Source: Clostridia bacterium (GTDB taxonomy: Bacteria; Bacillota; Clostridia; UBA1212; DUPL01). Taken from it: a stretch of DNA of 64,000 nt. The notes under the pieces are model-generated. The model searched no databases, was not told the origin of the DNA, and was given only the letters and a program-made list of their open reading frames with translations. The position numbers were made by a program, and so were the translations under genes. The stretch's first letter is position 1; every line of letters starts with the position of its first letter. Positions 480-64,000 of this stretch are shown in pieces. The stretch covers positions 192,001 to 256,000 of the forward strand of contig JBMNIW010000001.1 in NCBI GenBank assembly GCA_050951325.1, given 5' to 3'.

Positions 480-497
480 AACGATCCCTTCTCTTTT

Positions 498-605
498 TTA
501 TATCAAATCAGAAAAATCACCAAAATTGTCACCACTTGCTGTAATAACATCATCGCTTTCAAAAACATATATTTCAAAGTCAGGTAGCTCATAACTCATT
601 TTCAT
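498..605 (-). CDS. 35-aa small peptide MKMSYELPDFEIYVFESDDVITASGDNFGDFSDLI
   Basis: Strong RBS (AAGGGGG) upstream of ATG 605, TAA at 498-500; fills the gap between two co-oriented genes; YxxP...DVITxS pattern. Confidence 0.7.
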   Translation of the reverse strand: MKMSYELPDFEIYVFESDDVITASGDNFGDFSDLI

Positions 606-712
606 TGAAAATCCCCCTTACTCAATATTTTGTAGTCCTGCATCTCTGGAAAATCCCACTTTACCTTCCAGCAGAGTCGCTAAAGCCAACTCTGCCGGAA
701 AGCAACAGTTCT

Positions 713-5259: not shown

Positions 5260-5407
5260 ACTCCCCTCACATTTGTTAGTTTGTCTTATATCTGGATGGA
5301 TTTTATCATTAATATTTATATAATTGTTATAAGAACAACTCTCATAATATTAAAAAAGTAACATAAAGGAAGAAGAATAATAAATTTGCAGTATTGCATT
5401 ATTAAAA

Positions 5408-6752: not shown

Positions 6753-6870
6753 TAAGCTCTCCTCTCCACCTATCCTTGTCCAATTGTCAATAATACATTA
6801 TCAAGTCTTATTGAATGGATGTAGCAAAAAAAGGCAAAAAATATTTAAATCGTGTCAAGCATTAATATTC

Positions 6871-8067
6871 CTACATATTTGCTATAAGGCCAAGTCTAAG
6901 GGTTTCGGATAGTAAATTATAGGAGTAATCCTGAGGCATTTTGAATATGTCGCCTAAAGAGAAAATGATTCTCTCTGCCATTTTGTAAAGGGTGCTGTCT
7001 TCTTTGAACAGCGCCTTTTGTAATTGCAGGATGCATACAAGTGCAATAGGAATTGCTTCTGCCATGCCCAGGTATGGAGAAAGAAAAACAAGAAGATTAA
7101 TAACAATCAGATAACCGGCAACCGTCAATTCACCAGTATTATCAAACATGTACTCAACAAGCCAGTAGCCTGCAAGAACAAGCACGGACAAAAAAACAAA
7201 AACGGCATTTCCCACACTGTCGGGCGCATCATCAACTTTCCTGCTAAGATCCCCTATGTACTGCTCTATTTTTCCTATCTTTCCATGAGCCACAAAATCT
7301 CCATCCAACACAATATTGTCCAATCTGTGCACGGTTACAAAGTTTTTGCCTTCCCAATTTGCTTTTACATATACTACCTCTCCCACAGGATTCAGTAAAG
7401 CCCCTATAAAACTCCATGTATAGTTGAACATGCGCTCCTGCATCCTTTCAATACCCCTTCTGTGCTCTTCCCTATTCAAATATTCATTACTGAAACCGGG
7501 TCCGTCAAAATTGGCACATATCTCAATAAAGTCATCGAGCCCGTACTTGTAAGATATTATGGCAAAATGAGAAGCCAGGTTTCCACCCAGCGAGTGCCCG
7601 GCAACTGCCATAGAGGTATATCTGTGTATGTATTTGGAATACGCTATCTGCCTTGCAAAATTCTCACACTCCTTTTGTTGGATGGTAATCTCACTGTTAA
7701 GAAGCATAAGATCTGCAAAAACCCAGTCTGCTATCCTGTGCCTGATTTCCGACATTGGCTCGCTTCCTCTAAGAGCGCAAACTATTCTTTGTTCATCAAG
7801 TTCAATGAGACAACCGTAAAACCCGGAAGAATGAGTAAAATCATTGTCGTTGTAATAGTCTACAAGCTTGTAGCTTCTAATGGCTCTCAAATCATCTTTG
7901 CTTACGTATTCCAGCAAGGACAAATCGGCAATATTGGACTTGCCAAGCAAATCCAATATCTCTCCTATTGATACGGGACCGCCTTCTGACAAAAAGTCAA
8001 AACCTTTATACAAATCCAGAAACGCAATAAATGAAGCGTACGCAAGCTCCCTATCGGTAAACGGCAT
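6871..8067 (-). CDS. Lipase / phospholipase of DUF2974 (Mbeg1-like) type with C-terminal membrane helices
   Basis: ALRGSE, GHSLGGNLA nucleophile elbow, FDGPGF, downstream His; likely start MPFTDREL at 8067. Confidence 0.7.
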   Translation of the reverse strand: MPFTDRELAYASFIAFLDLYKGFDFLSEGGPVSIGEILDLLGKSNIADLSLLEYVSKDDLRAIRSYKLVDYYNDNDFTHSSGFYGCLIELDEQRIVCALRGSEPMSEIRHRIADWVFADLMLLNSEITIQQKECENFARQIAYSKYIHRYTSMAVAGHSLGGNLASHFAIISYKYGLDDFIEICANFDGPGFSNEYLNREEHRRGIERMQERMFNYTWSFIGALLNPVGEVVYVKANWEGKNFVTVHRLDNIVLDGDFVAHGKIGKIEQYIGDLSRKVDDAPDSVGNAVFVFLSVLVLAGYWLVEYMFDNTGELTVAGYLIVINLLVFLSPYLGMAEAIPIALVCILQLQKALFKEDSTLYKMAERIIFSLGDIFKMPQDYSYNLLSETLRLGLIANM

Positions 8068-8071
8068 AAAA

Positions 8072-8623
8072 TCACCCAAACCTGAACTCAAACACAGGAT
8101 AAAACCTTCTCATAAAAGATTTATCCAAAAATCTTCTATTCTCATACGACAATGTGGTATAGTCATAGTAATTCAAAACAAAAACATCCAAGGTCAAGCT
8201 CCTGCCCAGTTGTGAAACAGACATTTCTATCCGCTTCTCAACTTCCTCTTTCGTCTGAAGATTATCCAATACAACAAGAATTCCATAGTATACGTCTTCC
8301 TTAAACAAGGTAATCTCTAGTCTTCCGACAATTCCATATTCATACAGATTAAAAAGAAGTGCCTTTTCCACTTCCCTTGCAGCATATGCTCGGATATAAC
8401 TGTCCTGGATGTTCTTCCTGTCTGCAATCACTTTAAAACATATTTTTGAATCGTCCCTTGCACAGCAAACGGCAACCACCCTGCCGCTTGCCATGTCGTA
8501 ATTGCCGATTGCCAGTACATCAAATTCCACATCATATTTCTCCCTCAACCTGTCAAGGATGAAGGAAGAAATATAATCAGTTATTTTCCCATCATGAATG
8601 CTGTTTAACACTTGCCCAATCAT
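8072..8623 (-). CDS. Hypothetical protein, possible partner or immunity protein of the lipase
   Basis: 183-aa ORF directly upstream of the lipase; LREKYDVEFDV ... DSY pattern. Confidence 0.5.
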   Translation of the reverse strand: MIGQVLNSIHDGKITDYISSFILDRLREKYDVEFDVLAIGNYDMASGRVVAVCCARDDSKICFKVIADRKNIQDSYIRAYAAREVEKALLFNLYEYGIVGRLEITLFKEDVYYGILVVLDNLQTKEEVEKRIEMSVSQLGRSLTLDVFVLNYYDYTTLSYENRRFLDKSFMRRFYPVFEFRFG

Positions 8624-48822: not shown

Positions 48823-50676
48823 TTATCTTCTCAATCTATATCTCAAAAGCCTCATGCCGTTCAATATGACGGCCAGAATGCTGGCTTCATGTACAAACAT
48901 GCCAATCGACATATTCATCCAGTCACTGAACAAAACACTCACAAGCAAAACAATTACAACGCCAATTGCAATGAATATGTTCTGTCTCATATTCCTGGTT
49001 ATTGCCTTTGACAGCCCAAGAGCATGTGGCAGTCGTCCGAAATCAGAGTTCATTAGTACGACATCCGAAGTTTCAATTGCCACATCTGTTCCGCTACCCA
49101 TGGCAATACCTACATGGGCAAGCGCAAGGGACGGACTGTCATTAACACCATCACCTACAAAGGCAACGATTTGTCCTTTGTCAATAATATCCTTGACATA
49201 TTCCGACTTGTCTTCAGGAAGCATGTTTCCACGAGCTTCTGTAAGTCTCAGCTCCTTTGCCACCAGATCCACCGTACCTTGGTTGTCACCAGAAAGCATG
49301 ACAAGATTTTTCACCTTCAGCCTCTTGAGGCTATCCAAATCCTTCTTTACATCTGGACGAATCTTGTCACGGACACCCATCAATACTTTAAGCTCTTCAT
49401 CAACAGCTGTCAATACCAGAGAATTACCGTTTTTCTCAAACCTATCAATGTCAGCTCTCATCCTGTCATCAAGGTGAACCTTCTCTCGTTCCATAAGAGC
49501 CACATTGCCAACAGCTATCCTGCGTCCATTTACTGTGGCAATTATGCCCTCTCCCTTGACAACTCCCGTATTCTCAACAGAAAAGGTTTCCACCTCTCCA
49601 ATGTGCTCAAGAACAGCCTTTGCCAGAGGATGATCAGATTCCTTTTCCACACTGGCAAGATAAGAAAGAACCTCTTCCACATTCTCTCCATAGTATTCCT
49701 TTTCCATGACAGAAGGATTTCCTACTGTCAGGGTTCCGGTTTTGTCAAACACCATGGTATCAAGCCTGCTGAAATCACTTATAACTTCGCTACCTTTAAA
49801 CAAAACTCCATGTCTTGCACCATTTCCAATTCCCGCCACATTCGATACAGGAACACCAATTACCAAGGCACCAGGGCATCCCAGCACCAGTATGGTTATT
49901 GCAAGTTCTACGTTCCTTGTAACAAGGCCTACCACAAAAGCCAGCACCAGTACAAAAGGTGTATAGTATTTAGAGAATCGGTCAATGAATCTTTCTGCCT
50001 GGGATTTGGAATCCTGGGCTTCTTCCACAAGCTCTATTATCCTTCCAAAAGTGGTGTCTTCCCCAACCCTGTCAGCAACTATCTGAATTGTTCCATTATC
50101 AAGTATTGTACCTGCAAATACTTTGGAACCTTTCTCCTTTGCAACGGGCAGAGATTCGCCTGTGATACTTGCCTCGTTCACACTTCCTTCACCCAATACA
50201 ACTGTTCCGTCTACAGGCACTTTTGCACCCGTCTTTACAAGAAGCACATCGCCAATATCTACCTCGTCAACATCAACTTCCTCAAACTCTCCGTTCTCCA
50301 TAAGCTTAAGAGCGCTCTCGGGAGCCATTTCAGCAAGTTCCTTTATTGCTGAACGTGTTTTGTTGAGAGTTCTCTGTTCCAGATATGCACCAAACAGGAA
50401 TAAAAATGTTACTATCGCAGCTTCCTCATAGTTCTTTATAACAAACGCACCGGTTACTGCAATGGTAACCAAAACATCTATACTAACAACCTTTATCCTT
50501 AAAGATTGGAAAGCCATTATGGCAATAGGTGCAGCACCCAGTACGGAAGCAGCTATCATCAATATTTCAAACAAAAACATGTTTCCTATCGTCCATCTTA
50601 CAAGGAAGGACAAAGCTATTAACACTCCGCCAATCAACGCTATTTTATTCTTGTGCTTTAATAAAAACCGCTGCAT
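48823..50676 (-). CDS. P1B-type heavy-metal ATPase with CPG membrane motif
   Basis: TGES, LGCPGAL, DKTGTLT, HP, GDGVND, HEAS. Confidence 0.9.
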   Translation of the reverse strand: MQRFLLKHKNKIALIGGVLIALSFLVRWTIGNMFLFEILMIAASVLGAAPIAIMAFQSLRIKVVSIDVLVTIAVTGAFVIKNYEEAAIVTFLFLFGAYLEQRTLNKTRSAIKELAEMAPESALKLMENGEFEEVDVDEVDIGDVLLVKTGAKVPVDGTVVLGEGSVNEASITGESLPVAKEKGSKVFAGTILDNGTIQIVADRVGEDTTFGRIIELVEEAQDSKSQAERFIDRFSKYYTPFVLVLAFVVGLVTRNVELAITILVLGCPGALVIGVPVSNVAGIGNGARHGVLFKGSEVISDFSRLDTMVFDKTGTLTVGNPSVMEKEYYGENVEEVLSYLASVEKESDHPLAKAVLEHIGEVETFSVENTGVVKGEGIIATVNGRRIAVGNVALMEREKVHLDDRMRADIDRFEKNGNSLVLTAVDEELKVLMGVRDKIRPDVKKDLDSLKRLKVKNLVMLSGDNQGTVDLVAKELRLTEARGNMLPEDKSEYVKDIIDKGQIVAFVGDGVNDSPSLALAHVGIAMGSGTDVAIETSDVVLMNSDFGRLPHALGLSKAITRNMRQNIFIAIGVVIVLLVSVLFSDWMNMSIGMFVHEASILAVILNGMRLLRYRLRR

Positions 50677-50706
50677 TACCTATCACCCCTTTAATTTAAA
50701 TTAACA

Positions 50707-50985
50707 TTATGCATGATATGCAATATCCAGTTCTTCAAGCATTTTATATACAGCTTCATAGCTTTCACAAACATCTTCCGGAACTGAATAATTGCCGGTT
50801 ATGTCGCGCAGTCTTGCAAACTTATCCTTAAGGTCTGCGTCTACTTTACCCTTCATTTCATCAAATACTTTTTTCACCTCATGAAACTCAGGATGATGCT
50901 CTCCATGCACTCTTGCCACTATGGGAACATACATCTCCAAAGTTTTCATGTGCTCCTTCTTAACCTCATCAAATGTTCTTGCCAT
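50707..50985 (-). CDS. Short RIC-like (iron-sulfur cluster repair di-iron) protein fragment family
   Basis: VARVHGEHHPE and LRDITGNYSVPEDVCESYEAVYKMLEELD, matching RIC/ScdA segments. Confidence 0.7.
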   Translation of the reverse strand: MARTFDEVKKEHMKTLEMYVPIVARVHGEHHPEFHEVKKVFDEMKGKVDADLKDKFARLRDITGNYSVPEDVCESYEAVYKMLEELDIAYHA

Positions 50986-51056
50986 AATAGATACCCTCTT
51001 TCTATCAATTGTTATCAATCACAAGCATATTATACCAGCCATTTTCACAGATTGCT

Positions 51057-51070
51057 TTGACTTGAATCAC
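51057..51070. promoter_or_regulatory. Possible FNR/Crp(Flp)-type box
   Basis: TTGACTTGAATCAC between the divergent RIC-ATPase and CDF genes. Confidence 0.4.
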
Positions 51071-51135
51071 ACTAAATATTTTGCATTCATAATATTACAT
51101 ATGTGTATTTAAAATATGCAGCATGGAGAAATGTC

Positions 51136-51996
51136 ATGGAAAACAAAAAGAAGTCACAACGCACATTAATACTAGTCATGATAATTAATTTCCTCATATC
51201 CATAATAAAAATCTGTTTGGGACTTTATACAAAAAGTACAAGCATGACAGCTGATGGTTTCCATTCCATTTCCGACACTTCTTCAAATATTGTGGGGATT
51301 ATTGGACTGCATTATGCATCAAAGCCAAAAGACAAAAAGCACCCTTACGGCCATTACAAGTTTGAAACCCTTGCTTCCTTGTTTATATCCTTCATGCTCT
51401 TTGCCTTGAGCGGACAAATAGTTGTTGACGCAATATCAAAATTCATAAATCCGACAATCACCAGAATTCCACCCATAAGTATTGCCGTATTAATATTCAC
51501 TATTGTAGTTAACACTGTAGTATCCGTCTGGGAGAACAAAAAGGGAAAGGAACTAAACAGCCAGGTTCTTGTATCTGACTCCATCCATACAAGAAGCGAC
51601 ATATTTGTGTCTTTAGGTGTGCTGGTTACTCTGATATTATTAAAACTTGGCGCAAACCCAATAATCGATCCAATTGCATCCCTTGTGGTGGCTGTATTCA
51701 TAATCCACGCTGCATTGAAGATATTCAAAGACAGCAGTTTTGTTCTGGTTGATGGAACCCAGATAAGTGAAGATGACATACGAAACATAGTCATGGAGTT
51801 TGATGAAGTTGTGGATGTACATAAAATACGCAGCAGAGGGAGTTTGGACAACTTGAACATTGATTTGCACATAGTAGTTAATGCAGACCTGGATGTGGAA
51901 AAGTCGCACATTCTCGTGCATGATATTGAGGATGCTATGAAAGAAAAATTCAATAAAAACACACAGGTGTTGGCTCATGTGGAGCCTGATAATTAA
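51136..51996 (+). CDS. Cation diffusion facilitator transporter
   Basis: ADGFHSISD, HPYGH, HTRSD, VHKIRSRG, HVEP. Confidence 0.9.
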   Translation: MENKKKSQRTLILVMIINFLISIIKICLGLYTKSTSMTADGFHSISDTSSNIVGIIGLHYASKPKDKKHPYGHYKFETLASLFISFMLFALSGQIVVDAISKFINPTITRIPPISIAVLIFTIVVNTVVSVWENKKGKELNSQVLVSDSIHTRSDIFVSLGVLVTLILLKLGANPIIDPIASLVVAVFIIHAALKIFKDSSFVLVDGTQISEDDIRNIVMEFDEVVDVHKIRSRGSLDNLNIDLHIVVNADLDVEKSHILVHDIEDAMKEKFNKNTQVLAHVEPDN

Positions 51997-53130
51997 TTAA
52001 ACAGGCTCCCTTACAAAATCGCCGACACTTACAGAACCATCCTCGTTCCAATAAAATCTCATAAACTCAATATATTGCTCATTTCCAGGCAGTCTTTCTG
52101 CAACAGAAATGTACCACTTACCCTTGAATTCAAACACCTCACTGCAGGAAGGCACATGAGCGGTATCTCCTACATGGTTCTCATCGCCTATCAAAAGACC
52201 TTTAACTTCAAAACCACCAAGCGGATTGTCGGATACTGCATAGGAAGTACCTTTTCCGCAGTCGGTATAGAAAAGATAATATTTGTTTTCATGCTTTACC
52301 ATGAAAGGAGATTCGCAGGCATATTTGCATCCAAGTTCAATCAAGGTTTCATCCTTCCAGTCAACAAGGTTCTTTGACGACGCAACACCGCATGCAGGAA
52401 AAGCATTTCCAACTTTTCTAATACCTGCGGTATAAAAATACATGTAGAAGGTATCATTATCCTTAAATATCATCACATCGCGATTGTCAAACCAGCTCTC
52501 CTGTGTCCACTTGTTCCATCTTGTCGGATAATACAAGGGATTCTTCTCATACCTTTCCCAGTTGTACAAATCCTTTGATGTGGCAAGAACAGTTGCCTGG
52601 GAAACATTGTAGTTAACCCCTGTATAGAACATCCAGTACATGCCGTCATGATGAATGACCGCAGGAGCCCATACCTGATAAACTTCATGTCCTTCAGGAT
52701 GTATTGCCACTGCAGGCTTGTGTATTTCCCAATCCACAAGATTCGTACTTGACGCATGTCCTATGTAGTGTACATATCTTTCCGGCCAGTCATAACCTAT
52801 GGAATCAATGGTGTAAAAAAGATGAACCTTATCATCAACTACAACCACTGAGTGGTCTGAACAGGAGCCTCCCGGTTCACAAAACTTGCCTTTAAGAGGC
52901 AGCTCCCCTCTTTCAAGGCTTTCCAGATGCCTGTACGCTCTTGTAATAAGATTGTCATACGAGATTCCATCCGGGGGCTGCCCGAAGTATGTATCGGGGC
53001 GGGCGCCTCTTGAAATCAAATCCGCCCTGTTTGCAAGTGCTTCAATGCTGGCCACAGTCTTTTTGTACTCAAAACCTTCCTTGACTCTGAAAGGTCCAAG
53101 TCTGCTCATAATATCCCTGTATGCGTTCAT
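51997..53130 (-). CDS. Five-bladed beta-propeller glycoside hydrolase (GH32/GH43 clan-like)
   Basis: HLFY, IGHASSTNLVDW, WAPAVI, FYTG, SKDLYNW, NRD, CESP. Confidence 0.7.
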   Translation of the reverse strand: MNAYRDIMSRLGPFRVKEGFEYKKTVASIEALANRADLISRGARPDTYFGQPPDGISYDNLITRAYRHLESLERGELPLKGKFCEPGGSCSDHSVVVVDDKVHLFYTIDSIGYDWPERYVHYIGHASSTNLVDWEIHKPAVAIHPEGHEVYQVWAPAVIHHDGMYWMFYTGVNYNVSQATVLATSKDLYNWERYEKNPLYYPTRWNKWTQESWFDNRDVMIFKDNDTFYMYFYTAGIRKVGNAFPACGVASSKNLVDWKDETLIELGCKYACESPFMVKHENKYYLFYTDCGKGTSYAVSDNPLGGFEVKGLLIGDENHVGDTAHVPSCSEVFEFKGKWYISVAERLPGNEQYIEFMRFYWNEDGSVSVGDFVREPV

Positions 53131-53145
53131 AAAGGCCTCCCATAT

Positions 53146-54522
53146 CTATTTTAATATCTTTTTAACCAGTTTTAAATTCTTGCGGTTTGGATATCTTAGT
53201 GGAACATCTATCACATTTGATTTTCTTAAAATGCTCTTGTAGTGGGTAAAGGTGTCAAAGCTTTTCCTGCCGTGATAGCTGCCCATGCCGCTTTCGCCAA
53301 CACCACCAAAAGGCATTTGCTTGGATACAAGATGCATGATGGTGTCGTTTATGCATCCGCCTCCAAAGGATATTGAGTTTAAAATCTTCTCTTCCCTATC
53401 CTTGCTTGTTGTAAAGAAGTACAAGGCAAGAGGTTTGGGTCTCAGTTTTATTCTCTCAATTACTTCATCCAAATTCTCAAACTCAATAATCGGAAGAACA
53501 GGCCCAAAGATTTCTTCCTGCATCACGGGACTGTCCCAGGATGCATTATCAATGAAACACGGATTTATCTTCAATCTCTTTTCGTCAAATTCTCCCCCGT
53601 AAATTACCTTCTCACTTTTTACAAGTCCGAGCAATCTGTTAAAGTGCTTTTCATTTATGATCTTCGTGTAGCCCTCATTCTCAACAGGGTTCGAACCATA
53701 AAAGTCTTCCACAACCCTTTTCATTTTTTCAACCAGTTCGTTTTTTACACTTGAATGAACCAACAGATAGTCAGGAGCAACGCAGGTCTGACCCACATTT
53801 ATGAGTTTGCCCCAGATAATTCTTTTTGCAGCCAAATCCAGATTTGCCGTTTCGTCAACTATGCAGGGACTCTTGCCGCCAAGCTCCAAGGTTACCGGTG
53901 TAAGATGTTTGGCTGCACTTTCCATAACCACTTTTCCAACGGAAACACTTCCTGTAAAGAATATATAGTCGAACTTGCTGTCAAGCAGTGCCTTGTTGGC
54001 TTCCCTTCCCCCTTCAATTACACAAATGTATTCCTTATCGAAGGTTTCCTCAATGAGGTGCTTGAGTACCTTTGATGTATTTGGAGAATAGGACGACGGC
54101 TTGACAACTGCACAATTCCCTGCCGCAATACTTCCCACAAGAGGAGCAATTGCCAGCTGGAAAGGATAGTTCCATGGTGATATGATCAAGGTTACACCAT
54201 AGGGTTCAGGATAGATAAAGCTTTTTGCTGGAAAAGAGGCAATATCCGTTCGGACTCTTTTCCTTTTTGCCCATTTGGGAAGCTTTCTTGCCGCATAACT
54301 TAGCTCATTCAAAACAAAACCTATTTCAGTAGTGTATGAGTCAAAGGCATCCTTGTTTAGATCCTTAAAAAGCGCATCCATTATCCTGTCTTCATAACCC
54401 AAAACAGCCCTTTTCAGCTTTTTAAGCATCTCAATCCGGAACTTTACATCCTTTGTCCTTCCACTATTGAAAAACTCCCTTTGTTTATTGACAATCTCAC
54501 TGATGGCGTCCATGTTCACCAC
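53146..54522 (-). CDS. Aldehyde dehydrogenase (ALDH3/YwdH-like)
   Basis: PWNYP, FTGS, LELGGKSP, GQTCVAPDY, EEIFGP, PFGGVGESG. Confidence 0.92.
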   Translation of the reverse strand: MVNMDAISEIVNKQREFFNSGRTKDVKFRIEMLKKLKRAVLGYEDRIMDALFKDLNKDAFDSYTTEIGFVLNELSYAARKLPKWAKRKRVRTDIASFPAKSFIYPEPYGVTLIISPWNYPFQLAIAPLVGSIAAGNCAVVKPSSYSPNTSKVLKHLIEETFDKEYICVIEGGREANKALLDSKFDYIFFTGSVSVGKVVMESAAKHLTPVTLELGGKSPCIVDETANLDLAAKRIIWGKLINVGQTCVAPDYLLVHSSVKNELVEKMKRVVEDFYGSNPVENEGYTKIINEKHFNRLLGLVKSEKVIYGGEFDEKRLKINPCFIDNASWDSPVMQEEIFGPVLPIIEFENLDEVIERIKLRPKPLALYFFTTSKDREEKILNSISFGGGCINDTIMHLVSKQMPFGGVGESGMGSYHGRKSFDTFTHYKSILRKSNVIDVPLRYPNRKNLKLVKKILK

Positions 54523-54525
54523 CCT

Positions 54526-54885
54526 TTACTTTCTTAATATCTTTTCCATCGCCTTTCCTTTGGCCAGTTCATCAACCAGCTTGTCCAAATAGCGTATTTC
54601 CCTCATCAAAGGCTCTTCAATTTCCTCCACCCTTACACCGCATACCATACCTTTTATGAGCATGCGGTTTGGGTTAAGTTCTGGTGCCTGGGAGAAAAAT
54701 TCCTCAAAAGTCGATTCCTTTTCAAGATGCTCCAAAAGTTCTTCCTGGGTGTATCCTGTAAGCCACAAGATAATCTCGTCAACTTCCTGTTTGGTACGCC
54801 CTTTCCTTTCAGCCTTGCTTACATAAAGAGGATAAACCTTGGCAAAACTCATGGAATATATTTTTTCATTACTGTTTCTTCCCAT
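54526..54885 (-). CDS. DUF2200 family protein
   Basis: [43 protein letters not shown]. Confidence 0.85.
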
Positions 54886-54981
54886 AACAATCCTTCCTGG
54901 TGTTTTTCTTTATGCTACCATAATTTATTTCGAAATACAAAAAAACAACAAAAACGTGTAACACGGTTGTTTTCCAACCTT

Positions 54982-55842
54982 TTACCCTTCATTCTTCCCA
55001 GTCTTTATGTTGATAACCAGCATCCCCAACATTATAAACACGCCGCCGATGAGGGTTCTGACAGTCAGTATATCTCCTACAAATATGGAGAAAATGGCTA
55101 CAAAAAGTGGTTCTGACAGGAATATAATGGCTGCATGGGTAGGGTCTGTGTAGGGCTGCATCTTGTTCTGCACCATGTATGCAACCACAGTACTGAATAC
55201 CGCTATAAACAAAACTGAAAGAACCGTGGTTTTGTTTATGGGAACGTAAAACTTCTCCACTGCCATGGAAGGTATGAAAGACAAAAGACTTACCACCAGC
55301 ATTTGCATAAATGTGGTCTCAAGTATGTATTCACTTTTTGCATACTTGCCCACCAGCAAAATCTGAAAGGCATAAGCTACTGCACTGACAACCAAAAGAA
55401 CGTCACCAATATTGATTCCAGAAGATCCTTCAATCGACATTACAGCAAGACCAAACAAACTTATTCCCACTGCAAAAACAGTCTTTAAATCCGGCAGCTT
55501 TCTGTATATTACAGCAGTTATTACAGGAACAAATATTGAATACAAACCTGTAAGAAAACCGGCCTTGCTTGGGGTTGTATATAATAGGGCTATGGTTTGC
55601 AGAAGACTTCCCAGAAACATGGACAAACCTATAAGAGCTCCACCTTTTATACTTTCCTTCTCTGTTTTTCTCAATCTTTTAACCACAAAAGGAAGTAATA
55701 TAATTGTGGCAATGGAGTATCTTGTCAGCATGAAAGTATAAGGGCCAATATGTTGGAGAGCAAGGCTCATTACCGGCATGCCCGCTCCCCAAATCATACT
55801 AATAACCAACAAAGAAATATCCGCTTTTAGTTGTTTACTCAT
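54982..55842 (-). CDS. EamA/DMT transporter
   Basis: IWG, about 10 TM helices, GD, EP motifs. Confidence 0.85.
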   Translation of the reverse strand: MSKQLKADISLLVISMIWGAGMPVMSLALQHIGPYTFMLTRYSIATIILLPFVVKRLRKTEKESIKGGALIGLSMFLGSLLQTIALLYTTPSKAGFLTGLYSIFVPVITAVIYRKLPDLKTVFAVGISLFGLAVMSIEGSSGINIGDVLLVVSAVAYAFQILLVGKYAKSEYILETTFMQMLVVSLLSFIPSMAVEKFYVPINKTTVLSVLFIAVFSTVVAYMVQNKMQPYTDPTHAAIIFLSEPLFVAIFSIFVGDILTVRTLIGGVFIMLGMLVINIKTGKNEG

Positions 55843-55857
55843 TCAATCCTCTTTCTA

Positions 55858-57642
55858 TCAATCTATTTTGTAATTCACAGCCTGTGACTGGAACAACTTG
55901 TAGTACAAACTATCCGTCTTCTTGAGCAGATTCTCATGGGTGTCGTAATCCTGCACCTTTCCCTTCTCAATAATCAGCACTCGGTCGCAGAATACGCTGC
56001 TGGACATTCTGTGGGATATGTATATGGCAGTTTTCTTACCAATCAGTTTGTTGAAGTTTGCATATATATCTGCTTCAGCAATCGGATCAAGAGCTGATGT
56101 CGGCTCATCAAGAATCACCAGCGAAGCATCCTTGTACAAAGCTCTTGCTATTGCAATCTTCTGGGTCTGACCGCCTGACATCTCGATACCTTTTTCATCG
56201 TATGCCTTTCCAATTCTCGAACGGATGCCCTCTGGAAGACTCTGCACCTTTTCCGTCATGCCCACTTCTTCCAGAATAGCCATGGCTCTTTCGGTATCTT
56301 CTCCAACATCCTTGCAGGTAATGTTCTCCTCAATACTGAATGCAAACAGTTTGTAATCCTGAAAAACCGCAGCAATCTTCTTCATGTAGCTTGTGTAGTC
56401 ATACTCAAACACATCCCTGCCGTTTATTAATATCTTGCCTGACATAGGTCTGTACAGCCTGCAAACAAGCTTTACCAAGGTAGTCTTTCCAGCACCGTTC
56501 AATCCTACAATGGATATCTTCTCACCCTTTGATATCTTGAAGGATATGTCATCAAGGACAAGCATGTCGCTTCCAGGATACTTGAAGGATACATTTCTAA
56601 ACTCAATGGATTCAACCTCTCCTTCAGACTCCACATCTCCGCCCACATCCTTTTCATCAGGCAGAGACATGAATTCCATGAAAGGATCCAGAAATCTCAA
56701 TGTCTGACCCATCATGACGATGTTTTTGGAAAGCTCGGTTGTCTCCCTTGCAAAGTTTATGGCACTAGACACATACATGGAAAAGGAACCTATGCCTATT
56801 CTTGGTCCGAACCAGTCGGTTGCCACCCTTAAAGCAACGTATCCGTATGCAATTGCAGCCTGCAGGTCGTTTATGATTCCATTAACACCTGTGACTACTC
56901 CCTGTTTTTCGTAGTATCCTGAGAACCAGTCATTTATCTCCTTGTTGTACTCCGTCACCCTGTCTGAGAGCATCTTGTTCATGCTGTAGAGACGGATGTC
57001 CTTTTGCAGTCTGTTGTCATAGCACAAGTCAAGATAATAGCCGTACTTCCTGTTGACAGGTATTATCTGAGAAAAGAAATTTACCTGGTAGTTCACAAAA
57101 GCGAAGTATATAACAATGCCTATGACAACAGTGACAAGAAGCATAAGTACAAGAATACGGCTCAGAAATAACATTATAGCAAAAAGGCCTGCAATTGTGA
57201 ACACGTTCTTGAATATGAATGCAATGCTTTTAACCAGCCCCAGCATAGCCTGCTGGTTTGTGGTGGCAAACACAGCCCTTTCTTTCAAATCAAGATAATA
57301 TGGGTTTTCAAGGTACGAAAACTCCACATTCATAATTTTTTCACCCATTGCATAATTCATCTTTTCCGACATGTACCTGTTTTTTACCTCCATGGTCCTT
57401 TTCATAAGGTTGTTCAAGAATGCAAAGAAAATATTTGCAAGTACAATTGCGCACACAAAGAAAACAATTATGCCAACTTCTCTTTCTCCCAACAACTCGT
57501 CAATCAAAAACTTTGGGAGTACAACATTTGCAATAATCTGTCCTCCTCCAGCAATAGTGTTGACTATGAGAAGGAGAATGTATGAGGGGGATATCTTCCA
57601 TGACAGTGAGAAAAACATCCTTATCTTCTTCAAATTATTCAT
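55858..57642 (-). CDS. ABC exporter, fused permease and ATPase
   Basis: TM domain, GLNGAGKTT, SGGQ, LDEPT, SHR. Confidence 0.9.
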   Translation of the reverse strand: MNNLKKIRMFFSLSWKISPSYILLLIVNTIAGGGQIIANVVLPKFLIDELLGEREVGIIVFFVCAIVLANIFFAFLNNLMKRTMEVKNRYMSEKMNYAMGEKIMNVEFSYLENPYYLDLKERAVFATTNQQAMLGLVKSIAFIFKNVFTIAGLFAIMLFLSRILVLMLLVTVVIGIVIYFAFVNYQVNFFSQIIPVNRKYGYYLDLCYDNRLQKDIRLYSMNKMLSDRVTEYNKEINDWFSGYYEKQGVVTGVNGIINDLQAAIAYGYVALRVATDWFGPRIGIGSFSMYVSSAINFARETTELSKNIVMMGQTLRFLDPFMEFMSLPDEKDVGGDVESEGEVESIEFRNVSFKYPGSDMLVLDDISFKISKGEKISIVGLNGAGKTTLVKLVCRLYRPMSGKILINGRDVFEYDYTSYMKKIAAVFQDYKLFAFSIEENITCKDVGEDTERAMAILEEVGMTEKVQSLPEGIRSRIGKAYDEKGIEMSGGQTQKIAIARALYKDASLVILDEPTSALDPIAEADIYANFNKLIGKKTAIYISHRMSSSVFCDRVLIIEKGKVQDYDTHENLLKKTDSLYYKLFQSQAVNYKID

Positions 57643-58157
57643 TGTTTTTGCCTCCCTCATTGTAGTATTTGCCTTGAATTACAAACATCTCGTAATAGCT
57701 TCCCCGTTTGGCCATAAGCTCGTCATGGCTTCCGTATTCTTTAATACCGTCATTATCCAGCAGAACTATCTTGTCGCAGAACTTTGTGCTTGCAAGCCTG
57801 TGCGATACAAAAATTGAAGTCTTGTTCTTTACCAGTTCGTTAAAATTCTCATATATCTCAGCTTCCGCAAGAGCATCCAGAGAAGCAGTAGGCTCATCAA
57901 GAATTACCATATTGCCATCCTTGTACAAAGCCCTTGCAATGGCAAGCTTCTGATTTTCACCACCCGAGAACTCAATACCCTTCTCATCTATAATTTTCAG
58001 CATCATTTGGTCAAGGCCTTTTGGCAAATTTCCAACCTTGTTTCCAAGACCCACCTTGTCCAAAGACTGAACAACTTTTTCCTTGTCAATGTTTTCCGAC
58101 CTGCAGGCAACATTCTCGGCAATGGTGAATGCTAATACATTAATATCCTGGAACACT
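57635..58157 (-). pseudogene. C-terminal remnant of the partner ABC exporter, cut by the integrative element
   Basis: Begins at the Q-loop (VVFQD), has FSGGE and LDEPT, lacks Walker A and the TM domain. Confidence 0.85.
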
Positions 58158-58385: not shown

Positions 58386-59576
58386 TTATTCAAATAGGTT
58401 TGTCTGTACAGCATCAGAGGCCTGTTCCTTTCTTTCCAATGCATCTTGATATATGTCAGCGGTAATAGTTACAGAACTATGCCCTAGCATCGCAGAGGTC
58501 ACTTTTAAATCTACATTTGACTCTAGCATTAATGTGGCATAACTGTGGCGTAAATCATGAAACCTAATTATAGGAAAATTGTTTTTCTCCAATAATTTTC
58601 TGAACTTCTTGCTAAAATTCTTCGGGTTTAATGGGGTTCCATCATTATGGCAGCAGACAAGGTCATTATCGATATAGTCCGACCCTATCATTTTTTTAAT
58701 TTTCTCTTGTTTCTCTTTATGTTCAAGCAATAATTCCACTAAACCCTTGGGCATAGGGAGTGTCCTTATACTGTTTTCTGTTTTCAAGGTAGTTAACTCA
58801 ACAATCTTTTTCTGCTCGTTATAACTTGCCTGCTGTCTTATCTCTACTTTTCCAGTATTAAAATTAATATTCTTCCACTGAAGTCCCAAAACCTCGCCAC
58901 GCCTTAACCCTAAAGAAACCCCTAAAGTTACAGGTATATACAAATCTGTTCCATTTGCGGCTTCTAATAGTATTTTCAGCATATTAGCATCATAAATATT
59001 GTTTTGGTATTTCCTCACAGTAGGCCTTGATACGCCTTCTGCCGGATTTCTTATTAGAATACCATCTCTGACAGCATCTTTTAGCGCTTTATTCAATACT
59101 CGATGAATATATTGAATAGACCTTGCTGATAATTTTTTAGATTTATTTTCATCATTATTGCTGCCACCCCCATCATATAGGTCGAAGTAAAACTTTTGGA
59201 TTTGTCCTCTAGAAAGTTGTTGGATAGGTACGTGACCTATGTTAGGAATTATATGATTTTCAATATTGACCCTGTAACCCCTTAGTGTATTACTGCTTAG
59301 CCTTGGCCTGCAATGTGTGCCGTACCATTTAGTAAGGTATTCCGCCAAGGTCATCTTTGTCGGTTCTATATAGGTATTGGAGTTAATTTTAGCGTTTATT
59401 TCGTATAATGCTTCCTGGGCTTCTTTCTTGGTTTTGAAGCCCCCCTTCCATCGTTGCTTCTTTTTCCCCGTCTTTGGGTCTATTGGGTAATATAATATTG
59501 TCCATGTATTTCCACGCTTAAATGGATTCCCCCGTTTGCCATACCTTCGAGTTTTACCGTTAGTCTCATTTTTCAA
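58386..59576 (-). CDS. int: Tyrosine integrase (ICEBs1/phage type)
   Basis: GFKTKKEA arm-binding domain; GLRRGE, LKT, FHDLRH, LGH, IY catalytic residues. Confidence 0.95.
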   Translation of the reverse strand: MKNETNGKTRRYGKRGNPFKRGNTWTILYYPIDPKTGKKKQRWKGGFKTKKEAQEALYEINAKINSNTYIEPTKMTLAEYLTKWYGTHCRPRLSSNTLRGYRVNIENHIIPNIGHVPIQQLSRGQIQKFYFDLYDGGGSNNDENKSKKLSARSIQYIHRVLNKALKDAVRDGILIRNPAEGVSRPTVRKYQNNIYDANMLKILLEAANGTDLYIPVTLGVSLGLRRGEVLGLQWKNINFNTGKVEIRQQASYNEQKKIVELTTLKTENSIRTLPMPKGLVELLLEHKEKQEKIKKMIGSDYIDNDLVCCHNDGTPLNPKNFSKKFRKLLEKNNFPIIRFHDLRHSYATLMLESNVDLKVTSAMLGHSSVTITADIYQDALERKEQASDAVQTNLFE

Positions 59577-59644: not shown

Positions 59645-59851
59645 TTATGAGACTCTCTCCTCATGTGAGGAGTTAAGCCACTCAAAAAATGGTTGTGTCG
59701 GTATCCTAATAGCATTCTTTATTCTTATATGAGGGAATAGGTTCTGGTGTACAACCTCATAGGCCTTACTTCGACCAATCCTTAGAATCTCTGCCACCTC
59801 AGGAACAGTTAAAGTAGCCTGCTTTTTATAATCTTCAATGCTCCTAGTCAT
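59645..59851 (-). CDS. xis: Excisionase (HTH_17)
   Basis: LTVPEVAEILRIGRSKAYE ... IRIP; directly upstream of int. Confidence 0.85.
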   Translation of the reverse strand: MTRSIEDYKKQATLTVPEVAEILRIGRSKAYEVVHQNLFPHIRIKNAIRIPTQPFFEWLNSSHEERVS

Positions 59852-60077
59852 TTCGATTCCTCCTTTGTGTTTTAATGATATTAATGCCTGTTTCTATATG
59901 ACTCTTTATATAAAAAGTTCTGATTGGGATTCAACTTTTTATGGTAAGTTTTGTCCCTACATTTGTAGCATAACACAAAAAAATTGTACGGTTTTTATCC
60001 CCCTATTCTTCTGAATCTCTTCTGGTACAATATGGGGAAGACATGAAATGTTTACATAATCCAATATTGCTAGTAAT

Positions 60078-60120
60078 AAAAAAAGGCTTTAGTAGATTCA
60101 TAGTCTACTAAAACCTTTTT
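60078..60120 (-). terminator. Terminator after the PIN-like gene
   Basis: AAAAAGG.TTTAGTAGA ... TCTACTAAA.CCTTTTT hairpin. Confidence 0.7.
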
Positions 60121-60149
60121 GATGGCGCTATAGAGTTTACCCTAATCTG

Positions 60150-61019
60150 TCAGAAAATTAAATGTAACGTGTCATCCTCTAACATATCCAAAAATGCTAT
60201 ATTATCTATCACTCTTTCTTGCTCTTCAATTGAATTATCCTGTTTCTTCCTAGTGAATTTAATCCTTCTCGCCTGCCTATAACTATTTACAAATGAATCA
60301 ATATTATCACGCTTTATATATCCAAGCCTTGTCCATTCATAAATTAAAAAGTCGTTTGACTTAAAAGTTATGGACGTATATCTTTTATCTCTAAAATAAT
60401 CTTCTTTATAAATCTTTTCCTTTGCTTTAGAGATAAAGTCATAAGCATCTCTATCACTGCTGAAGATAGTAATAGTATCAATCTTTTCACTGTAAAAATA
60501 GGAAAATATATAACTTAGAACACAAATTGAAATCTCGCCTGCATTTTTTCTCTGAATTCTACCGTTTGCAAGTTCCCTTTTATCCAGTCCCTCATTATAA
60601 ATTATATCTAACCATTCCTCATAAGGAGCCAAATCTTCTACTGGTCTCCCTTGCAGAATGTTTCTCTTTATAAATCCAACAAGCCTACTCACATTGTTGC
60701 AACTATACAGAAATATATAATACAATGCTGCTTCTTTATAATCCACTAATGCTGCGTAATCAACCTCATCTATAATTTGGACCTTTGAAAAATGCTTTAA
60801 ATTATAGATATAATTTTTCCTCTTTTCACTATCACAAACCTCTACCCACACCCATTTAGGTATAAAAATTATATCATACTGACAAAATATCTTTTCAGGG
60901 CCAATCCTATCATACATCCGGGTTAAAAACTCAATTGAATTATTATCTAAAATACAAACTTTGAGGGACTTGCCCTTAGAAAGATATTCTTTTAAGCAGT
61001 CAATATCTTTCCCTTTCAT
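60150..61019 (-). CDS. PIN-like domain protein with extensions
   Basis: ILDNNSI, IPKWVWVEV, NAGEISI, IFSSDRDA acidic motifs in PIN order. Confidence 0.55.
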   Translation of the reverse strand: MKGKDIDCLKEYLSKGKSLKVCILDNNSIEFLTRMYDRIGPEKIFCQYDIIFIPKWVWVEVCDSEKRKNYIYNLKHFSKVQIIDEVDYAALVDYKEAALYYIFLYSCNNVSRLVGFIKRNILQGRPVEDLAPYEEWLDIIYNEGLDKRELANGRIQRKNAGEISICVLSYIFSYFYSEKIDTITIFSSDRDAYDFISKAKEKIYKEDYFRDKRYTSITFKSNDFLIYEWTRLGYIKRDNIDSFVNSYRQARRIKFTRKKQDNSIEEQERVIDNIAFLDMLEDDTLHLIF

Positions 61020-61810
61020 TTAGAGAGTCCCTCCAGCCCTTCTTGAATTTTACTCTTTATTTCTAACAAATAACTATAATTATCTTTATGATATGAGACA
61101 TCTGGATTCTCTTCCATAACCTTTTTCATTTTTTTCTCCAAGCCACCTAAATTTACTACATATGAGGGTTTTACTAACTCGGAATCTAGCCCTAAATCTA
61201 TAAATTTCTGCACTAAATTTATAGATTTGTTATCAAAATGCTCCACAATCTCTTTCTTTAATTCTAAATCATTATATTTAGTAGTGGCTTCTTCAAATAG
61301 TTCTATCAGCACCGCCTTATATGGTGCCTTATATGCGTCCATACATTTTATAACCCTATCAATGAAATCTTCATCATCTAACGAGTAGTAATATTCATAT
61401 ACATTGCCAAAAATCATTTTTGCAGCAAAATAATCTGCCTTTCTTTCATTCAAATCCATATCAACTGCAATATTGTGTGTTTCTTCGCTCAAATTAAGGT
61501 CATAAAACAGGTGATAAATTTCATGCCATGCTACAAAATACTGATATACACGGGGCTGGGCTGTGTTTATCACTGGTATTTTGATGTTTTCCTTTGTAAT
61601 TATAGCCCCACCCCAATATTTATCATCAATAGGAATTTGAATTAAATGATGCTCTTTTAACACGGAAAAAGACAGTTTGTCTTGCCCTGCCATCCCCACC
61701 CTATTAAATCTAACTGTAAAATCATTTGTTAATCTTAATATATCATCTTTAATCAATTTATTTTTTTCAATAACCTGCTCCAGGTTCTTGCTAGTTATTA
61801 GTTCTGACAT
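61016..61810 (-). CDS. ImmA/IrrE (COG2856) zinc metallopeptidase
   Basis: VINTAQPRVYQYFVAWHEIYH (HExxH), NERKADYFAA; ATGA overlap with the PIN-like gene. Confidence 0.8.
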   Translation of the reverse strand: MSELITSKNLEQVIEKNKLIKDDILRLTNDFTVRFNRVGMAGQDKLSFSVLKEHHLIQIPIDDKYWGGAIITKENIKIPVINTAQPRVYQYFVAWHEIYHLFYDLNLSEETHNIAVDMDLNERKADYFAAKMIFGNVYEYYYSLDDEDFIDRVIKCMDAYKAPYKAVLIELFEEATTKYNDLELKKEIVEHFDNKSINLVQKFIDLGLDSELVKPSYVVNLGGLEKKMKKVMEENPDVSYHKDNYSYLLEIKSKIQEGLEGLSK

Positions 61811-61822
61811 AATTTCACCTTC

Positions 61823-62197
61823 TTAACCATAGTATAGTTCATACATGTGAACTATATCTTCTAAAATACCGAACATCTCCTGAGCATTAGAGGTTAAGGT
61901 ATGGTCATCTGGAGCATTATCAGATAGGGCAAAAACAAAATCCCTTTTTTCCTTGTGTCTTGGAGTATAATGCAAAAGTTGTTCAGCATCCATATCCTGG
62001 CTTTTTAGTATTTTACTAATATGGGTTCTAAATGTTGAGAGATTGTCAACTTCTCCCTTAATTAGTTTATCTAAAGTAGGCCTTGAAATAGTTGTGAGCC
62101 TTGAGAAGGATGACTTGGTATATCCGTTATCCTTTATGATGTTTAATATATTTTCACCAATTAATTTTCTGTTTTCAAACAATAATTCTATAATCAT
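61823..62197 (-). CDS. XRE-family HTH protein
   Basis: IGENILNIIKDNGYTKSSFSRLTTISRPTLDKLIKG; RBS GGAGGTG. Confidence 0.75.
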   Translation of the reverse strand: MIIELLFENRKLIGENILNIIKDNGYTKSSFSRLTTISRPTLDKLIKGEVDNLSTFRTHISKILKSQDMDAEQLLHYTPRHKEKRDFVFALSDNAPDDHTLTSNAQEMFGILEDIVHMYELYYG

Positions 62198-62722
62198 TTT
62201 TTACACCTCCCACCTTATTATATCCTAAATGTCAATAAAAAGATACCGTTTGTAAAGTATTTTTTTACATTCTTTCGTTTTTATCCTTTCCGCTGTAAAA
62301 CTCTTAATCTAAGGTGGCATAGTTAAATCTATTTTCTGCTGCTGTTTAGCATTTTATTAATGAAGAGTGTTATCTTTCGTATTATAATTTCTTATATAAT
62401 CCCAATATGCCTTTACTTCAGCCTGTTCTAACATATTAAAGATGCTTTCAATATCATCGTAAAATTTTTTATATGTCTTCAAAATATGGGGAGCCATTTT
62501 AACTTTTAAGTGTGGAAGGGAGTAATTGCAATATACCAAATCTCTCAAAACCAGAAATTAGGTGCGAACTAATAGAAATAAATTTGATTTTATTAGTATA
62601 TAAAAAGAATTTATATTCTCTTAACTCAACCATTAATCAACCTAAAATACTGTGTATCTTTACTAAATACTTTATCAGTATTAAAAACATATAATTAACT
62701 GTAAAATCCTTCCCCAAAATAA

Positions 62723-63512
62723 CTAAAACTTATCAATATCTTCTACTCTATAATATTTCTTTGTAGTTTCTCTAATATTATTCTTAGCCATTTCTTTTGT
62801 TTGTTCTAACTCTTCAGTAGACAATTGCCCTTTTGACATTAGTAATTTAAACAATTCTTCATTTAAATTATAAACATATGCCAAAATATTCATGATGTTG
62901 CTAAATTCAGGCTCAAAAAACTTCGATATAGATGACTCTTTATTGTCATAAACATCCTCAACTAGTACAATGTCTTTTTTAATATATCCATCATTTTCAG
63001 ACCAAATGACTTTCCCAAATCTCATTTTTTTAACTTCATCACTGATACCTTTTCTTATTACATCAAGGTAGATGTTCTCCTTCGTGGCCATATCAAGTTT
63101 TTCAGCATCTTCTTTTGACAATTTTATCTTTGAATTTATTATAATAGCATCATCATAACTTTCATTAAATTCGTAAGGTACTACTTCAAATCCTGCAATA
63201 ACTAAACTATCTATTGCTAATTCCTCAACTTCTTCTAAGCGCAAAGTATAAGTATAAACTGTATCTTCATCAGTATTATTCCCTGTATAACTAAAGAAAT
63301 GATTCACCAATCTATACTCTCTAATAGTTATACCATTGTTATCAATATTAAAAATTCCCCCGTTTTTAGCCTTGCTCAATGCGTTTTCAAGAGTATTCTT
63401 TTGGGTTTCACCTATAACTTGTAATCTAAAGGATAATATCTCAAGTTGTTTTCCTGTATGTGGTGATACTTTTGGCTCACCATAATCCACATTTGATACA
63501 TTAATTATATGG
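62723..63512 (-). pseudogene. Hypothetical cargo gene separated from its 5' end by IS21
   Basis: ORF 62723..63613 reads its first ~34 codons from the IS21 left end. Confidence 0.6.
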
Positions 63513-64000
63513 TGTTTATTGCATAATATAATTCCCCGAAATTGCAAAGCAAAATTCCCCACTTTTGCAACGCAAAACTCCCCATAATTGCAAAAGGCCA
63601 TTGCAGGCACCACACCAATAAATTATCCTTGTGTTTGTGGATAAATACAAGGAGGTAATGGAGGATGCTAACAATGACCCAAGTAAAGAATATCAGAAAA
63701 ATGTATTTTGAGGAAGGGAAAAATATTAGTCAAATTTCCAGTGAAACAGGACATTGCCGGAAAACTGTAAGAGGATATCTAAGCAAAGAGGATTGGAATG
63801 AGGAAATACCAAAAGTAAAAAAGAAAAATAACTTTCCAAAACTTGAGCAATTCAAACCATTAATCGATACATGGCTTTATGAAGATAAGAAAGCCAAACG
63901 AAAACAAAGGCATACTGCCACACACATATATAAACGTTTACAAGAAGAATGTAATGGTTTCAACTGCTCCTATAGAACTGTTGCAAGTTATGTTTCTCAA
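63513..64000 (+). mobile_element. IS21-family element, left end
   Basis: Starts TGTTTATTGCA; three TTGCA-N6/7-AAYTCCCC repeats (63519-63582); istA follows. Confidence 0.85.
63665..64000 (+). CDS. istA: IS21 transposase IstA (partial)
   Basis: Hand translation MLTMTQVKNIRKMYFEEGKNISQIS...RKTVRGYL...RKQRHTATHIYKRLQEE...SYRTV; RBS GGAGG. Confidence 0.9.
   Translation, partial: MLTMTQVKNIRKMYFEEGKNISQISSETGHCRKTVRGYLSKEDWNEEIPKVKKKNNFPKLEQFKPLIDTWLYEDKKAKRKQRHTATHIYKRLQEECNGFNCSYRTVASYVSQ

Follow-up and report, generated by a model that had tools for sequence, protein, structure and literature searches.

What are three genes, for a repressor, a metallopeptidase and a protein that no family model recognises, doing next to the integrase of a mobile element? 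This arrangement occurs in a stretch of 64,000 nucleotides (nt), hereafter the window, from a Clostridia bacterium (GenBank assembly GCA_050951325.1, contig JBMNIW010000001.1, positions 192,001 to 256,000 of the forward strand). All three open reading frames (ORFs) are on the minus strand of the window, head to tail, and they encode an XRE-family helix-turn-helix (HTH) protein, a zinc peptidase of the M78 (ImmA/IrrE) type and a protein of 289 residues. We find that the trio is a self-contained, horizontally mobile three-gene cassette that is not tied to the xis and int genes beside it in the window. It is a split variant of the three-component XRE/COG2856/PIN systems that were predicted in 2009 and 2017, the fused form of which, VapBC52, was characterised in 2026. 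By analogy with such systems, and along the lines of a first-pass annotation made from the letters of the window, we lean towards the view that the cassette is a protease-gated PIN toxin or defence module, which stress or phage would trigger.

The first-pass annotation had supposed that the three genes belong together, and their conservation supports this. We scanned one genome per species and obtained 44 loci with a relative of the 289-residue protein. All three genes are present in the same order at 38 of the 44 loci (tblastn with the window proteins), with identity of the 289-residue protein down to 30%. At five of the other six loci the contig ends before the upstream genes are reached; the sixth is a 50-residue remnant. 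Record titles of the trio loci name Thermoanaerobacterium, Clostridium, Lachnospiraceae, Oscillospiraceae, Erysipelotrichaceae, Treponema, Spirochaetaceae and Eggerthellaceae. Both the peptidase ORF and the nuclease ORF were called at 35 loci; they overlap at 31 of these, and at 18 the overlap is exactly ATGA (4 nt). The overlaps are based on the starts of the longest ORFs, so that some are overestimated. The same gene order, combined with a shared palindrome upstream (see below), in dozens of distant genomes is more than chance. The gene for the 289-residue protein is single-copy in the genome of the window. Among 398 genomes sampled from the class, 9 have it, and some copies are degraded.

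The carriers of the trio are varied. Besides the integrative element of the window, they include Tn7-like elements, loci with tyrosine or large serine recombinases, and a prophage (Table 1). The prophage is the single match in IMG/VR (L070), where the whole trio, together with its palindrome, lies between the large-terminase and portal genes; the interval between these two genes is a typical site of phage accessory cargo. A gene for a BspA-type leucine-rich repeat protein lies upstream in the same record. Among 50,697 records of phages and 72,556 of plasmids, none matched the trio. We surveyed both flanks at the 14 loci where both were available, running Pfam on 118 ORFs and PADLOC on 91, namely 89 of the 118 (ORFs that Pfam identified as clear housekeeping or transposition genes were dropped) and two ORFs of the window. 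Defence genes lie within 6 kilobases (kb) of the trio in 6 of the 14 loci. A "DrmD" match in L007 is IstB, a false friend, and was discarded. This diversity of contexts (integrative element, Tn7-like element, prophage, defence-gene neighbours) indicates that the trio is an autonomous mobile cassette rather than a regulator of excision of the element in the window.

Most of what had been described at the outset for the operon itself stands. It is compact and AT-rich, with a GC content of 0.29-0.34 over positions 60000-62500 compared with 0.38-0.46 over 50000-58000 of the window; it has a terminator of its own; and it adjoins xis and a tyrosine integrase gene, which follow downstream on the same strand. 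The ATGA coupling that had been ascribed to the operon applies to one junction. The stop codon of the peptidase gene and the start codon of the 289-residue gene share ATGA, whereas the XRE and peptidase genes are separated by a 12-nt spacer that carries a ribosome-binding site and no ATGA.

Upstream of the XRE gene is a putative operator, the palindrome TGTAAA-N7-TTTACA. It had been reported with a spacer of eight nucleotides at positions 62250-62269; the palindrome is real, but the spacer is one nucleotide shorter and the coordinates shift to those in Table 1. The pattern has one match in the 64-kb window, where 0.04 are expected, and matches were obtained in 4 of 100 shuffles. The right arm ends 28 nt upstream of TATAAT, a probable -10 box, and most trio loci have a TATAAT-like box at a spacing of 28-29 nt from the palindrome. 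Among the 38 loci with enough upstream DNA, 34 have the palindrome (with a spacer of N6-8) 70-114 nt upstream of the XRE start, and L015, L016, L029 and L040 lack it. In 432 kb of trio loci it is nearly the sole site of its kind, the one extra copy being in L024. That the palindrome is kept unaltered even where identity of the repressor is down to about 35% is strong evidence for function. Four occurrences were counted in the whole genome of the window, the same number as for the reversed control pattern; hence, no regulon is indicated. No good -35 element is positioned 16-18 nt from TATAAT (the TTGACA at 62235..62230 is separated from it by no more than 7 nt), and a consensus promoter scan called no sigma-70 promoter upstream of the XRE gene.

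Metatranscriptomes contain parts of the locus. Six runs include 41-59% of the words sampled from it, and coverage was assessed with assembled contigs of four runs from four studies. Pieces of these contigs cover parts of all three genes. A 1,284-nt piece (X19) at 60917..62200 comprises the XRE and peptidase genes together with the 5'-terminal 100 nt of the nuclease gene, and X18 contributes pieces at 61167..62195 and 60628..61191. The two long pieces, which come from separate studies, stop at 62195 and 62200 with no loose end, and this hints weakly that a 5' end lies a little downstream of TATAAT. Positions 62201-62253 and some other parts have no cover in the four runs, and this is no evidence of absence. 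Contigs over the region further upstream end inside the palindrome, at 62254 (X15) and 62264 (X19).

The proposed effector is the 289-residue protein. It has no match in Pfam, NCBIfam or PADLOC (the last at E <= 0.1), and a sequence profile search of the PDB with it returned chance rows only (best E 0.13). A word-indexed search found 86 homologues, of which all the named ones are "hypothetical", and an exhaustive search extended the relatives to 145 representative clusters. We modelled the protein with AlphaFold2 (predicted local distance difference test (pLDDT) 93.8, predicted template modelling score 0.91) and compared the model with 48,161 PDB representatives using VIA-align, which is independent of Foldseek. 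Most of the best 37 rows (Z 8.3-5.7) carry the titles of PIN proteins. They include Dis3/Rrp44 (Z 8.3 and 8.0), Nmd4 (8.0), Utp24 (7.9), Nob1 (7.5) and VapC (about 7), as well as Utp23, many VapC toxins, SMG5, EST1A and HARP; for some of the electron cryo-microscopy entries, the matched chain is the one that we take to be the PIN protein. The best Foldseek rows are PIN proteins as well (Nmd4 at E 1.8e-3, Dis3, VapC and HARP).

Conserved residues of the family are placed as in PIN nucleases. Invariant positions include D25, N26, E60, E85, N159, G161, E162 and D189, and D191 and D223 are at least 90% conserved in the family alignment. In the model, D25 directly follows the strand 19-24, E60 is in the helix behind strand 50-54, D189 and D191 are behind strand 180-186, and D223 is behind strand 217-220. 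Judged by their position along the predicted strands, the conserved acidic residues correspond to the PIN catalytic pattern. The PIN-like core spans approximately residues 17-240 and has helical inserts, while residues 240-289 or so form an additional C-terminal alpha/beta extension; an Atlas search with residues 205-289 gave no usable match. With PIN proteins dominating the structural matches and acidic residues at PIN positions, the PIN-like fold first suggested for this protein is sustained.

Two family assignments for the 289-residue protein were rejected. RAP is the commonest weak Pfam match (8 of 31 family members, best E 0.0056), but it is confined to residues 48-73 and was dismissed as a chance match to a short motif. 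Membership of DUF4935/PIN_12 (PF16289) was suggested solely by automatic cluster names in the Atlas (score 0.95) and was not borne out: the genome of the window has no PF16289 match, and hhalign gave a probability of 0.2% for the alignment of PF16289 with the family (seven PF16289 members; a small, poor alignment). PF01850 has only two matches in 30 related genomes.

A gut-type allele of the nuclease gene, found in many of the representative clusters, has an irregular structure. In P0101, P0108, P0110, P0111, P0146 and P0208 the N-terminus is the same and the breakpoints vary (residues ~93, 143, 188, 188 and 202), after which the frame continues into unrelated sequence; in three cases, the continuation consists of pieces of a large serine recombinase. 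Elements may have inserted into this gene repeatedly, or the sequences may be assembly chimeras.

The peptidase matches Pfam Peptidase_M78 (PF06114) at 19.3 bits (E 1e-3), below the curated cut-off of 22 bits, and the PADLOC models PDC-M69B (1.4e-15) and capP (3.2e-6). Its zinc ligands H96, E97, H100 and E122, which make up an HExxH motif and a downstream Glu, are invariant in 28 peptidase sequences. For the AlphaFold2 model (pLDDT 86.6), the best VIA-align match is CapP (7t5t; Z 12.2 over 160 residues, root mean square deviation 3.2), followed by PprI/IrrE (8sln; Z 10.2) and the XRE-peptidase regulators of Mycobacterium tuberculosis (6d2s and 6cyj; Z 9.3 and 8.6), below which the next row is at Z 5.5. 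Foldseek against the PDB puts the same entries first, but weakly (E >= 0.05). Both the invariant ligands and the CapP and PprI matches bear out the earlier description of an HExxH peptidase of the ImmA/IrrE type. The loop at residues 104-119 is flexible (pLDDT below 50 for residues 109-115) and carries an invariant H112; D117 is at least 90% conserved. By analogy, His112 may fill the role of the zinc-capping cysteine of CapP.

The first protein of the trio has an HTH_26 domain (Pfam, E 2.3e-9; Cro/C1-type HTH at residues 16-79), which agrees with its original identification as an XRE protein. It weakly matches PDC-M69A of PADLOC (1.3e-6) and has no match to PADLOC capH at E <= 0.1. An alignment of 23 XRE sequences showed that the HTH core S38-R-P-T-L42 is invariant, as is a motif, S92-x-N94-x-P96, behind a conserved aromatic residue. 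The C-terminus is a conserved helix (...ELYY).

Further information on how the parts belong together comes from a comparison of the window with locus L001. Identity per 100 nt is 59-86% from 62557 to ~61458, a region that covers an upstream ORF, the operator, the XRE gene and that half of the peptidase gene which encodes the catalytic domain. Identity is 100% from 61157 to 59858, through the nuclease gene and the terminator to the start of xis, and 94.7% over xis and int. This step indicates a recombination joint inside the peptidase gene, near position 61350. The joint separates the XRE protein and the catalytic domain on one side from the C-terminal helical domain and the nuclease on the other. 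It fits a pairing of substrate with protease on the first side and of peptidase tail with nuclease on the second; as a single event, it proves neither.

Three-component toxin-antitoxin systems composed of HTH, DUF955 (COG2856) and PIN-like proteins have been predicted (Makarova 2009, PMC2701414; Matelska 2017, PMC5499597). They have exactly the architecture of the cassette, with the same proposed logic. Their PIN partners belong to COG2405, DUF4411, PIN_14, PIN_20 and PIN_26. The nuclease family of the cassette matches neither PF14367 nor PF16289, and it may belong to PIN_14, PIN_20 or PIN_26; the two papers do not describe a conserved operator. Like type II and three-component toxin-antitoxin systems, the cassette is a compact operon with the HTH gene first and a patchy, mobile distribution.

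VapBC52 of M. tuberculosis (NAR 2026, PMC13273310) likewise combines an XRE-type HTH, a CapP/IrrE-like HExxH peptidase and a PIN-like toxin in one operon. In that system, VapB52 is a fusion of XRE and CapP-like peptidase parts that cleaves itself with single-stranded DNA (ssDNA) and frees the PIN toxin VapC52; it is ssDNA-stimulated proteolysis of the HTH-bearing part that is proposed to free the toxin. The antitoxin of VapBC52 is thus fused and self-cutting, whereas the corresponding genes of the cassette are separate. Moreover, its toxin is a small DUF4411 PIN protein, in contrast to a nuclease of 289 residues with a C-terminal extension and no Pfam match, and its switch loop has a cysteine where the cassette peptidase has an invariant His in its loop. 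CapH/CapP, a regulator pair of CBASS and other immune operons, resembles the cassette in having a separate XRE repressor and a separate M78 peptidase, and the fold of CapP is the best match of the cassette peptidase. The zinc ligands of CapP (H97, E98, H101 and E128) are spaced nearly identically to those of the cassette. CapP cleaves CapH upon binding ssDNA in a groove between its peptidase and GAF domains, and not all CapP homologues have the zinc-capping cysteine (10.64898/2026.05.16.725639). CapP has HTH and GAF domains, whereas the model of the cassette peptidase is all-helical after the peptidase domain and has no switch cysteine. A further difference from CapH/CapP is the cargo, which in the cassette is a single co-transcribed PIN-like gene that is translationally coupled to the peptidase gene.

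Other relatives are less close in organisation. ImmR/ImmA of ICEBs1 and DdrO/IrrE of Deinococcus are also pairs of repressor and M78 peptidase, but they control excision genes or a chromosomal regulon, whereas the only operator of the cassette is its own. PD-lambda-2 of E. coli is a validated three-gene defence system with a protein that has XRE and ImmA/IrrE-peptidase parts and with a toxin-like partner (Vassallo 2022, PMC9519451). It differs in that the partner is HigB and the HTH and peptidase are fused; toxicity was seen for the fusion protein, and its third gene is similar to a P4 antitoxin. No PIN nuclease is part of it. PIN nucleases are validated defence effectors in DS-3 and DS-5 (PMC13092281). 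Within PADLOC, the XRE protein and the peptidase match the models of the A and B components of a candidate system, PDC-M69, and the nuclease matches no model there; a literature search for the term "PDC-M69" found no paper. We found no paper that describes this nuclease family, which may already be clustered in the supplements of PMC5499597. What is new, then, is the split three-gene form with a large PIN-like family outside the Pfam, PADLOC and NCBIfam models, the peptidase that lacks a GAF domain and has a His in its switch loop, the conserved operator and the breadth of carriers.

These likenesses suggest how the cassette might work. A dimer of the XRE protein would bind TGTAAA-N7-TTTACA and autoregulate the operon, and the peptidase would be kept inactive, possibly through the invariant His112 on the loop that bears the zinc-capping cysteine in CapP. 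Upon a signal of stress or infection, the peptidase would cut the C-terminal part of the XRE protein, near the conserved aromatic residue that precedes S-D/Q-N-A-P. Loss of the repressor would then raise the level of the PIN-like nuclease, and if the XRE protein or the peptidase also holds the nuclease, this would be released too. The nuclease would cut RNA (by analogy, tRNA or rRNA) and stop growth, so that a phage infection would be aborted or cells that lose the carrying element would be penalised. By comparison with the known systems, control may be only transcriptional, as in CapH/CapP, or may also involve direct binding, as in VapBC52. A defence or toxin-antitoxin role is plausible from analogy and from the defence genes near 6 of the 14 surveyed loci.

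Several observations weigh against this reading. None of 31 members of the nuclease family has a match to a Pfam family of the PIN clan, even at E <= 10. Neither the peptidase model nor the 289-residue model, whose best rows are PIN proteins, has a Foldseek row in the PDB at E <= 1e-3; the fold conclusions rest on VIA-align. There, Z values of about 8 are moderate and in a range that is common for models without a clear match, and the weight hence lies on the uniformity of the hit list and on the conserved residues. As for the peptidase, the predicted model is all-helical after residue 87 (DSSP), with no GAF-like beta-rich domain, and no Cys is conserved between H100 and E122; the trigger may therefore not be ssDNA. 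The centre of the palindrome is ~40 nt upstream of the -10 box, a position as suitable for an activator as for a repressor. DNA can be present in RNA libraries, and assembled contigs are no proof of one continuous transcript. Finally, 8 of the 14 surveyed loci have no defence genes within 6 kb, and the neighbourhoods of L035 and L037 look like housekeeping.

Other explanations account for parts of these data. Since xis and int follow directly downstream of the operon, with no change of strand, and ImmR/ImmA of ICEBs1 consists of the same first two components, the trio could be an immunity switch that controls xis and int of the integrative element in the window, with the 289-residue protein as an accessory. 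The first-pass annotation had also raised control of excision, and this part of it is not supported. A strong terminator separates the operon from xis, no copy of the palindrome precedes xis (the site at 62251-62269 is the only one in the window), and an IS21 lies between the trio and xis in L001. Homologues of xis accompany the trio in only 3 of the 44 loci, and close relatives of int in L001 and L008, with a more distant one in L020, whereas the trio also occurs in Tn7-like, serine-recombinase and prophage contexts or with no recombinase at all. We consider such a switch highly improbable. Somewhat less remote, though still improbable, is a purely regulatory switch for DNA damage or stress of the DdrO/IrrE type, in which the PIN-fold protein would be a non-toxic enzyme of repair or RNA processing. 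Resemblance of the peptidase to IrrE/PprI (Z 10.2), autoregulation of the operon from one operator and some housekeeping loci would fit. However, the genome of the window has as many operator matches as reversed controls and thus no regulon, the cassette is found inside a prophage and transposons, and its patchy occurrence (9 of 398 genomes) with degraded copies fits accessory or conflict genes, not a core stress response.

An addiction module deserves more weight than either switch, although we regard it as rather unlikely. The XRE protein would be the labile antitoxin and repressor, the peptidase would speed its turnover, and the PIN toxin would stabilise carrier elements by post-segregational killing. 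The trio is often on mobile DNA, with the integrative element in the window and L001, Tn7-like elements in L004 and L007 and recombinases in L018, L023 and L024, and it adjoins RelBE-type modules in L006 and L021; trios of this kind are also classed as toxin-antitoxin systems in PMC2701414 and PMC5499597. Yet none was found among the plasmids, where addiction modules are common, and the contexts of L035 and L037 do not look mobile, while elsewhere the neighbours are defence systems. Addiction and defence are not mutually exclusive. Bolder, and in our view doubtful, is an elaboration of the defence reading. The 289-residue protein would found an unrecognised PIN-like family, and its trio, with a dedicated XRE repressor, a conserved operator and a GAF-less peptidase, would be a separate abortive-infection system against phage, present in Bacillota and in some further phyla, in which the nuclease would dock on the helical C-terminal domain of the peptidase instead of the repressor and a trigger other than ssDNA would be sensed through the nuclease-peptidase complex. 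Docking is hinted at by the conserved ATGA coupling and by the transfer of the C-terminal half of the peptidase gene with the nuclease gene as a block of 100% identity.

It is becoming apparent that pairs of a repressor and an M78 peptidase serve as a general means of switching on immune and toxin genes in bacteria, as in CapH/CapP and VapBC52. The cassette is a minimal split version of this arrangement, with a single operator, and with one effector among its three separate proteins. Transposons, integrative elements and a prophage carry it through thermophilic and gut Clostridia, and it retains a sharply defined operator across repressors of as little as ~35% identity. A peptidase without the ssDNA-sensing domain known from CapP may point to another trigger. 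Should the cassette defend against phage, a new model would be required in tools for defence annotation; otherwise, it remains tractable for the study of protease-gated toxin modules.

Table 1. Coordinates of the cassette, of its surroundings in the window and of genes near the trio at related loci
Sequence	Feature	Coordinates	Strand	Remarks
Window	XRE-family HTH gene	61823..62197	minus	124 residues; first gene of trio
Window	M78 zinc peptidase gene	61016..61810	minus	264 residues; HEIYH at residues 96-100
Window	Gene for 289-residue PIN-fold protein (PINL)	60150..61019	minus	third gene of trio
Window	Intrinsic terminator closing trio operon	60080..60120	minus	17-pair stem, 7-nt loop, T-run
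Window	Ribosome-binding site GGAGG of XRE gene	62206..62210	minus	from sequence inspection
Window	Probable -10 box TATAAT	62217..62222	minus	conserved at same spacing in relatives
Window	Putative operator palindrome TGTAAA-N7-TTTACA	62251..62269	none	19 nt; conserved in relatives
Window	xis, HTH_17	59645..59851	minus	downstream of trio, same strand
Window	Tyrosine integrase gene	58386..59576	minus	after xis, same strand as trio
Window	63-residue ORF	62357..62548	minus	just upstream of operator
Window	296-residue ORF	62723..63613	minus	
Window	173-residue ORF	57635..58156		
Window	Open-ended ORF	63665-64000	plus	leaves the window
L070	Trio	3703-5798		
L070	Palindrome	3712		
L070	Large terminase gene	2094-3692		
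L070	Portal gene	6850-8232		
L021 (Clostridium aromativorans)	DruE-like helicase	29-2539		immediately upstream of trio
L023 (Tepidibacter thalassicus)	Gabija pair: GajA-like OLD ATPase and GajB-like UvrD helicase	1042-4701		immediately upstream of trio
L023	Patatin effector			near trio
L018	PDC-M45A/B/C			near trio
L019	WYL and type I restriction endonuclease fragments			near trio
L030	Type I restriction-modification			near trio
L033	PDC-S01			near trio
L004, L007	Tn7-like tnsA/B/C			directly downstream of trio
L001, L018, L023	Tyrosine recombinases			near trio
L024	Large serine recombinase			near trio
L006, L021	RelBE-type pairs			near trio

Some further ORFs of the window lie outside the conserved trio. 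The 63-residue ORF next to the operator has no family match and is conserved (67-68%) in L001 and L007 only. The 296-residue ORF beyond it has no Pfam or PADLOC match; its sole match is a weak one to an NCBIfam Sta1-family model at the C-terminus (E 0.0088). On the other side of the cassette, homology between the window and L001 stops at 58154, beside the 173-residue ORF, which corresponds to no more than the C-terminal ATPase portion of an ABC transporter. It seems that the integrative element has inserted into an ABC-transporter gene or next to its truncated end, and its other end is beyond the window. The ORF that runs out of the window is 75% identical at the DNA level to part of an L001 ORF beside IstB, and from this likeness it is a putative IS21-like transposase gene.

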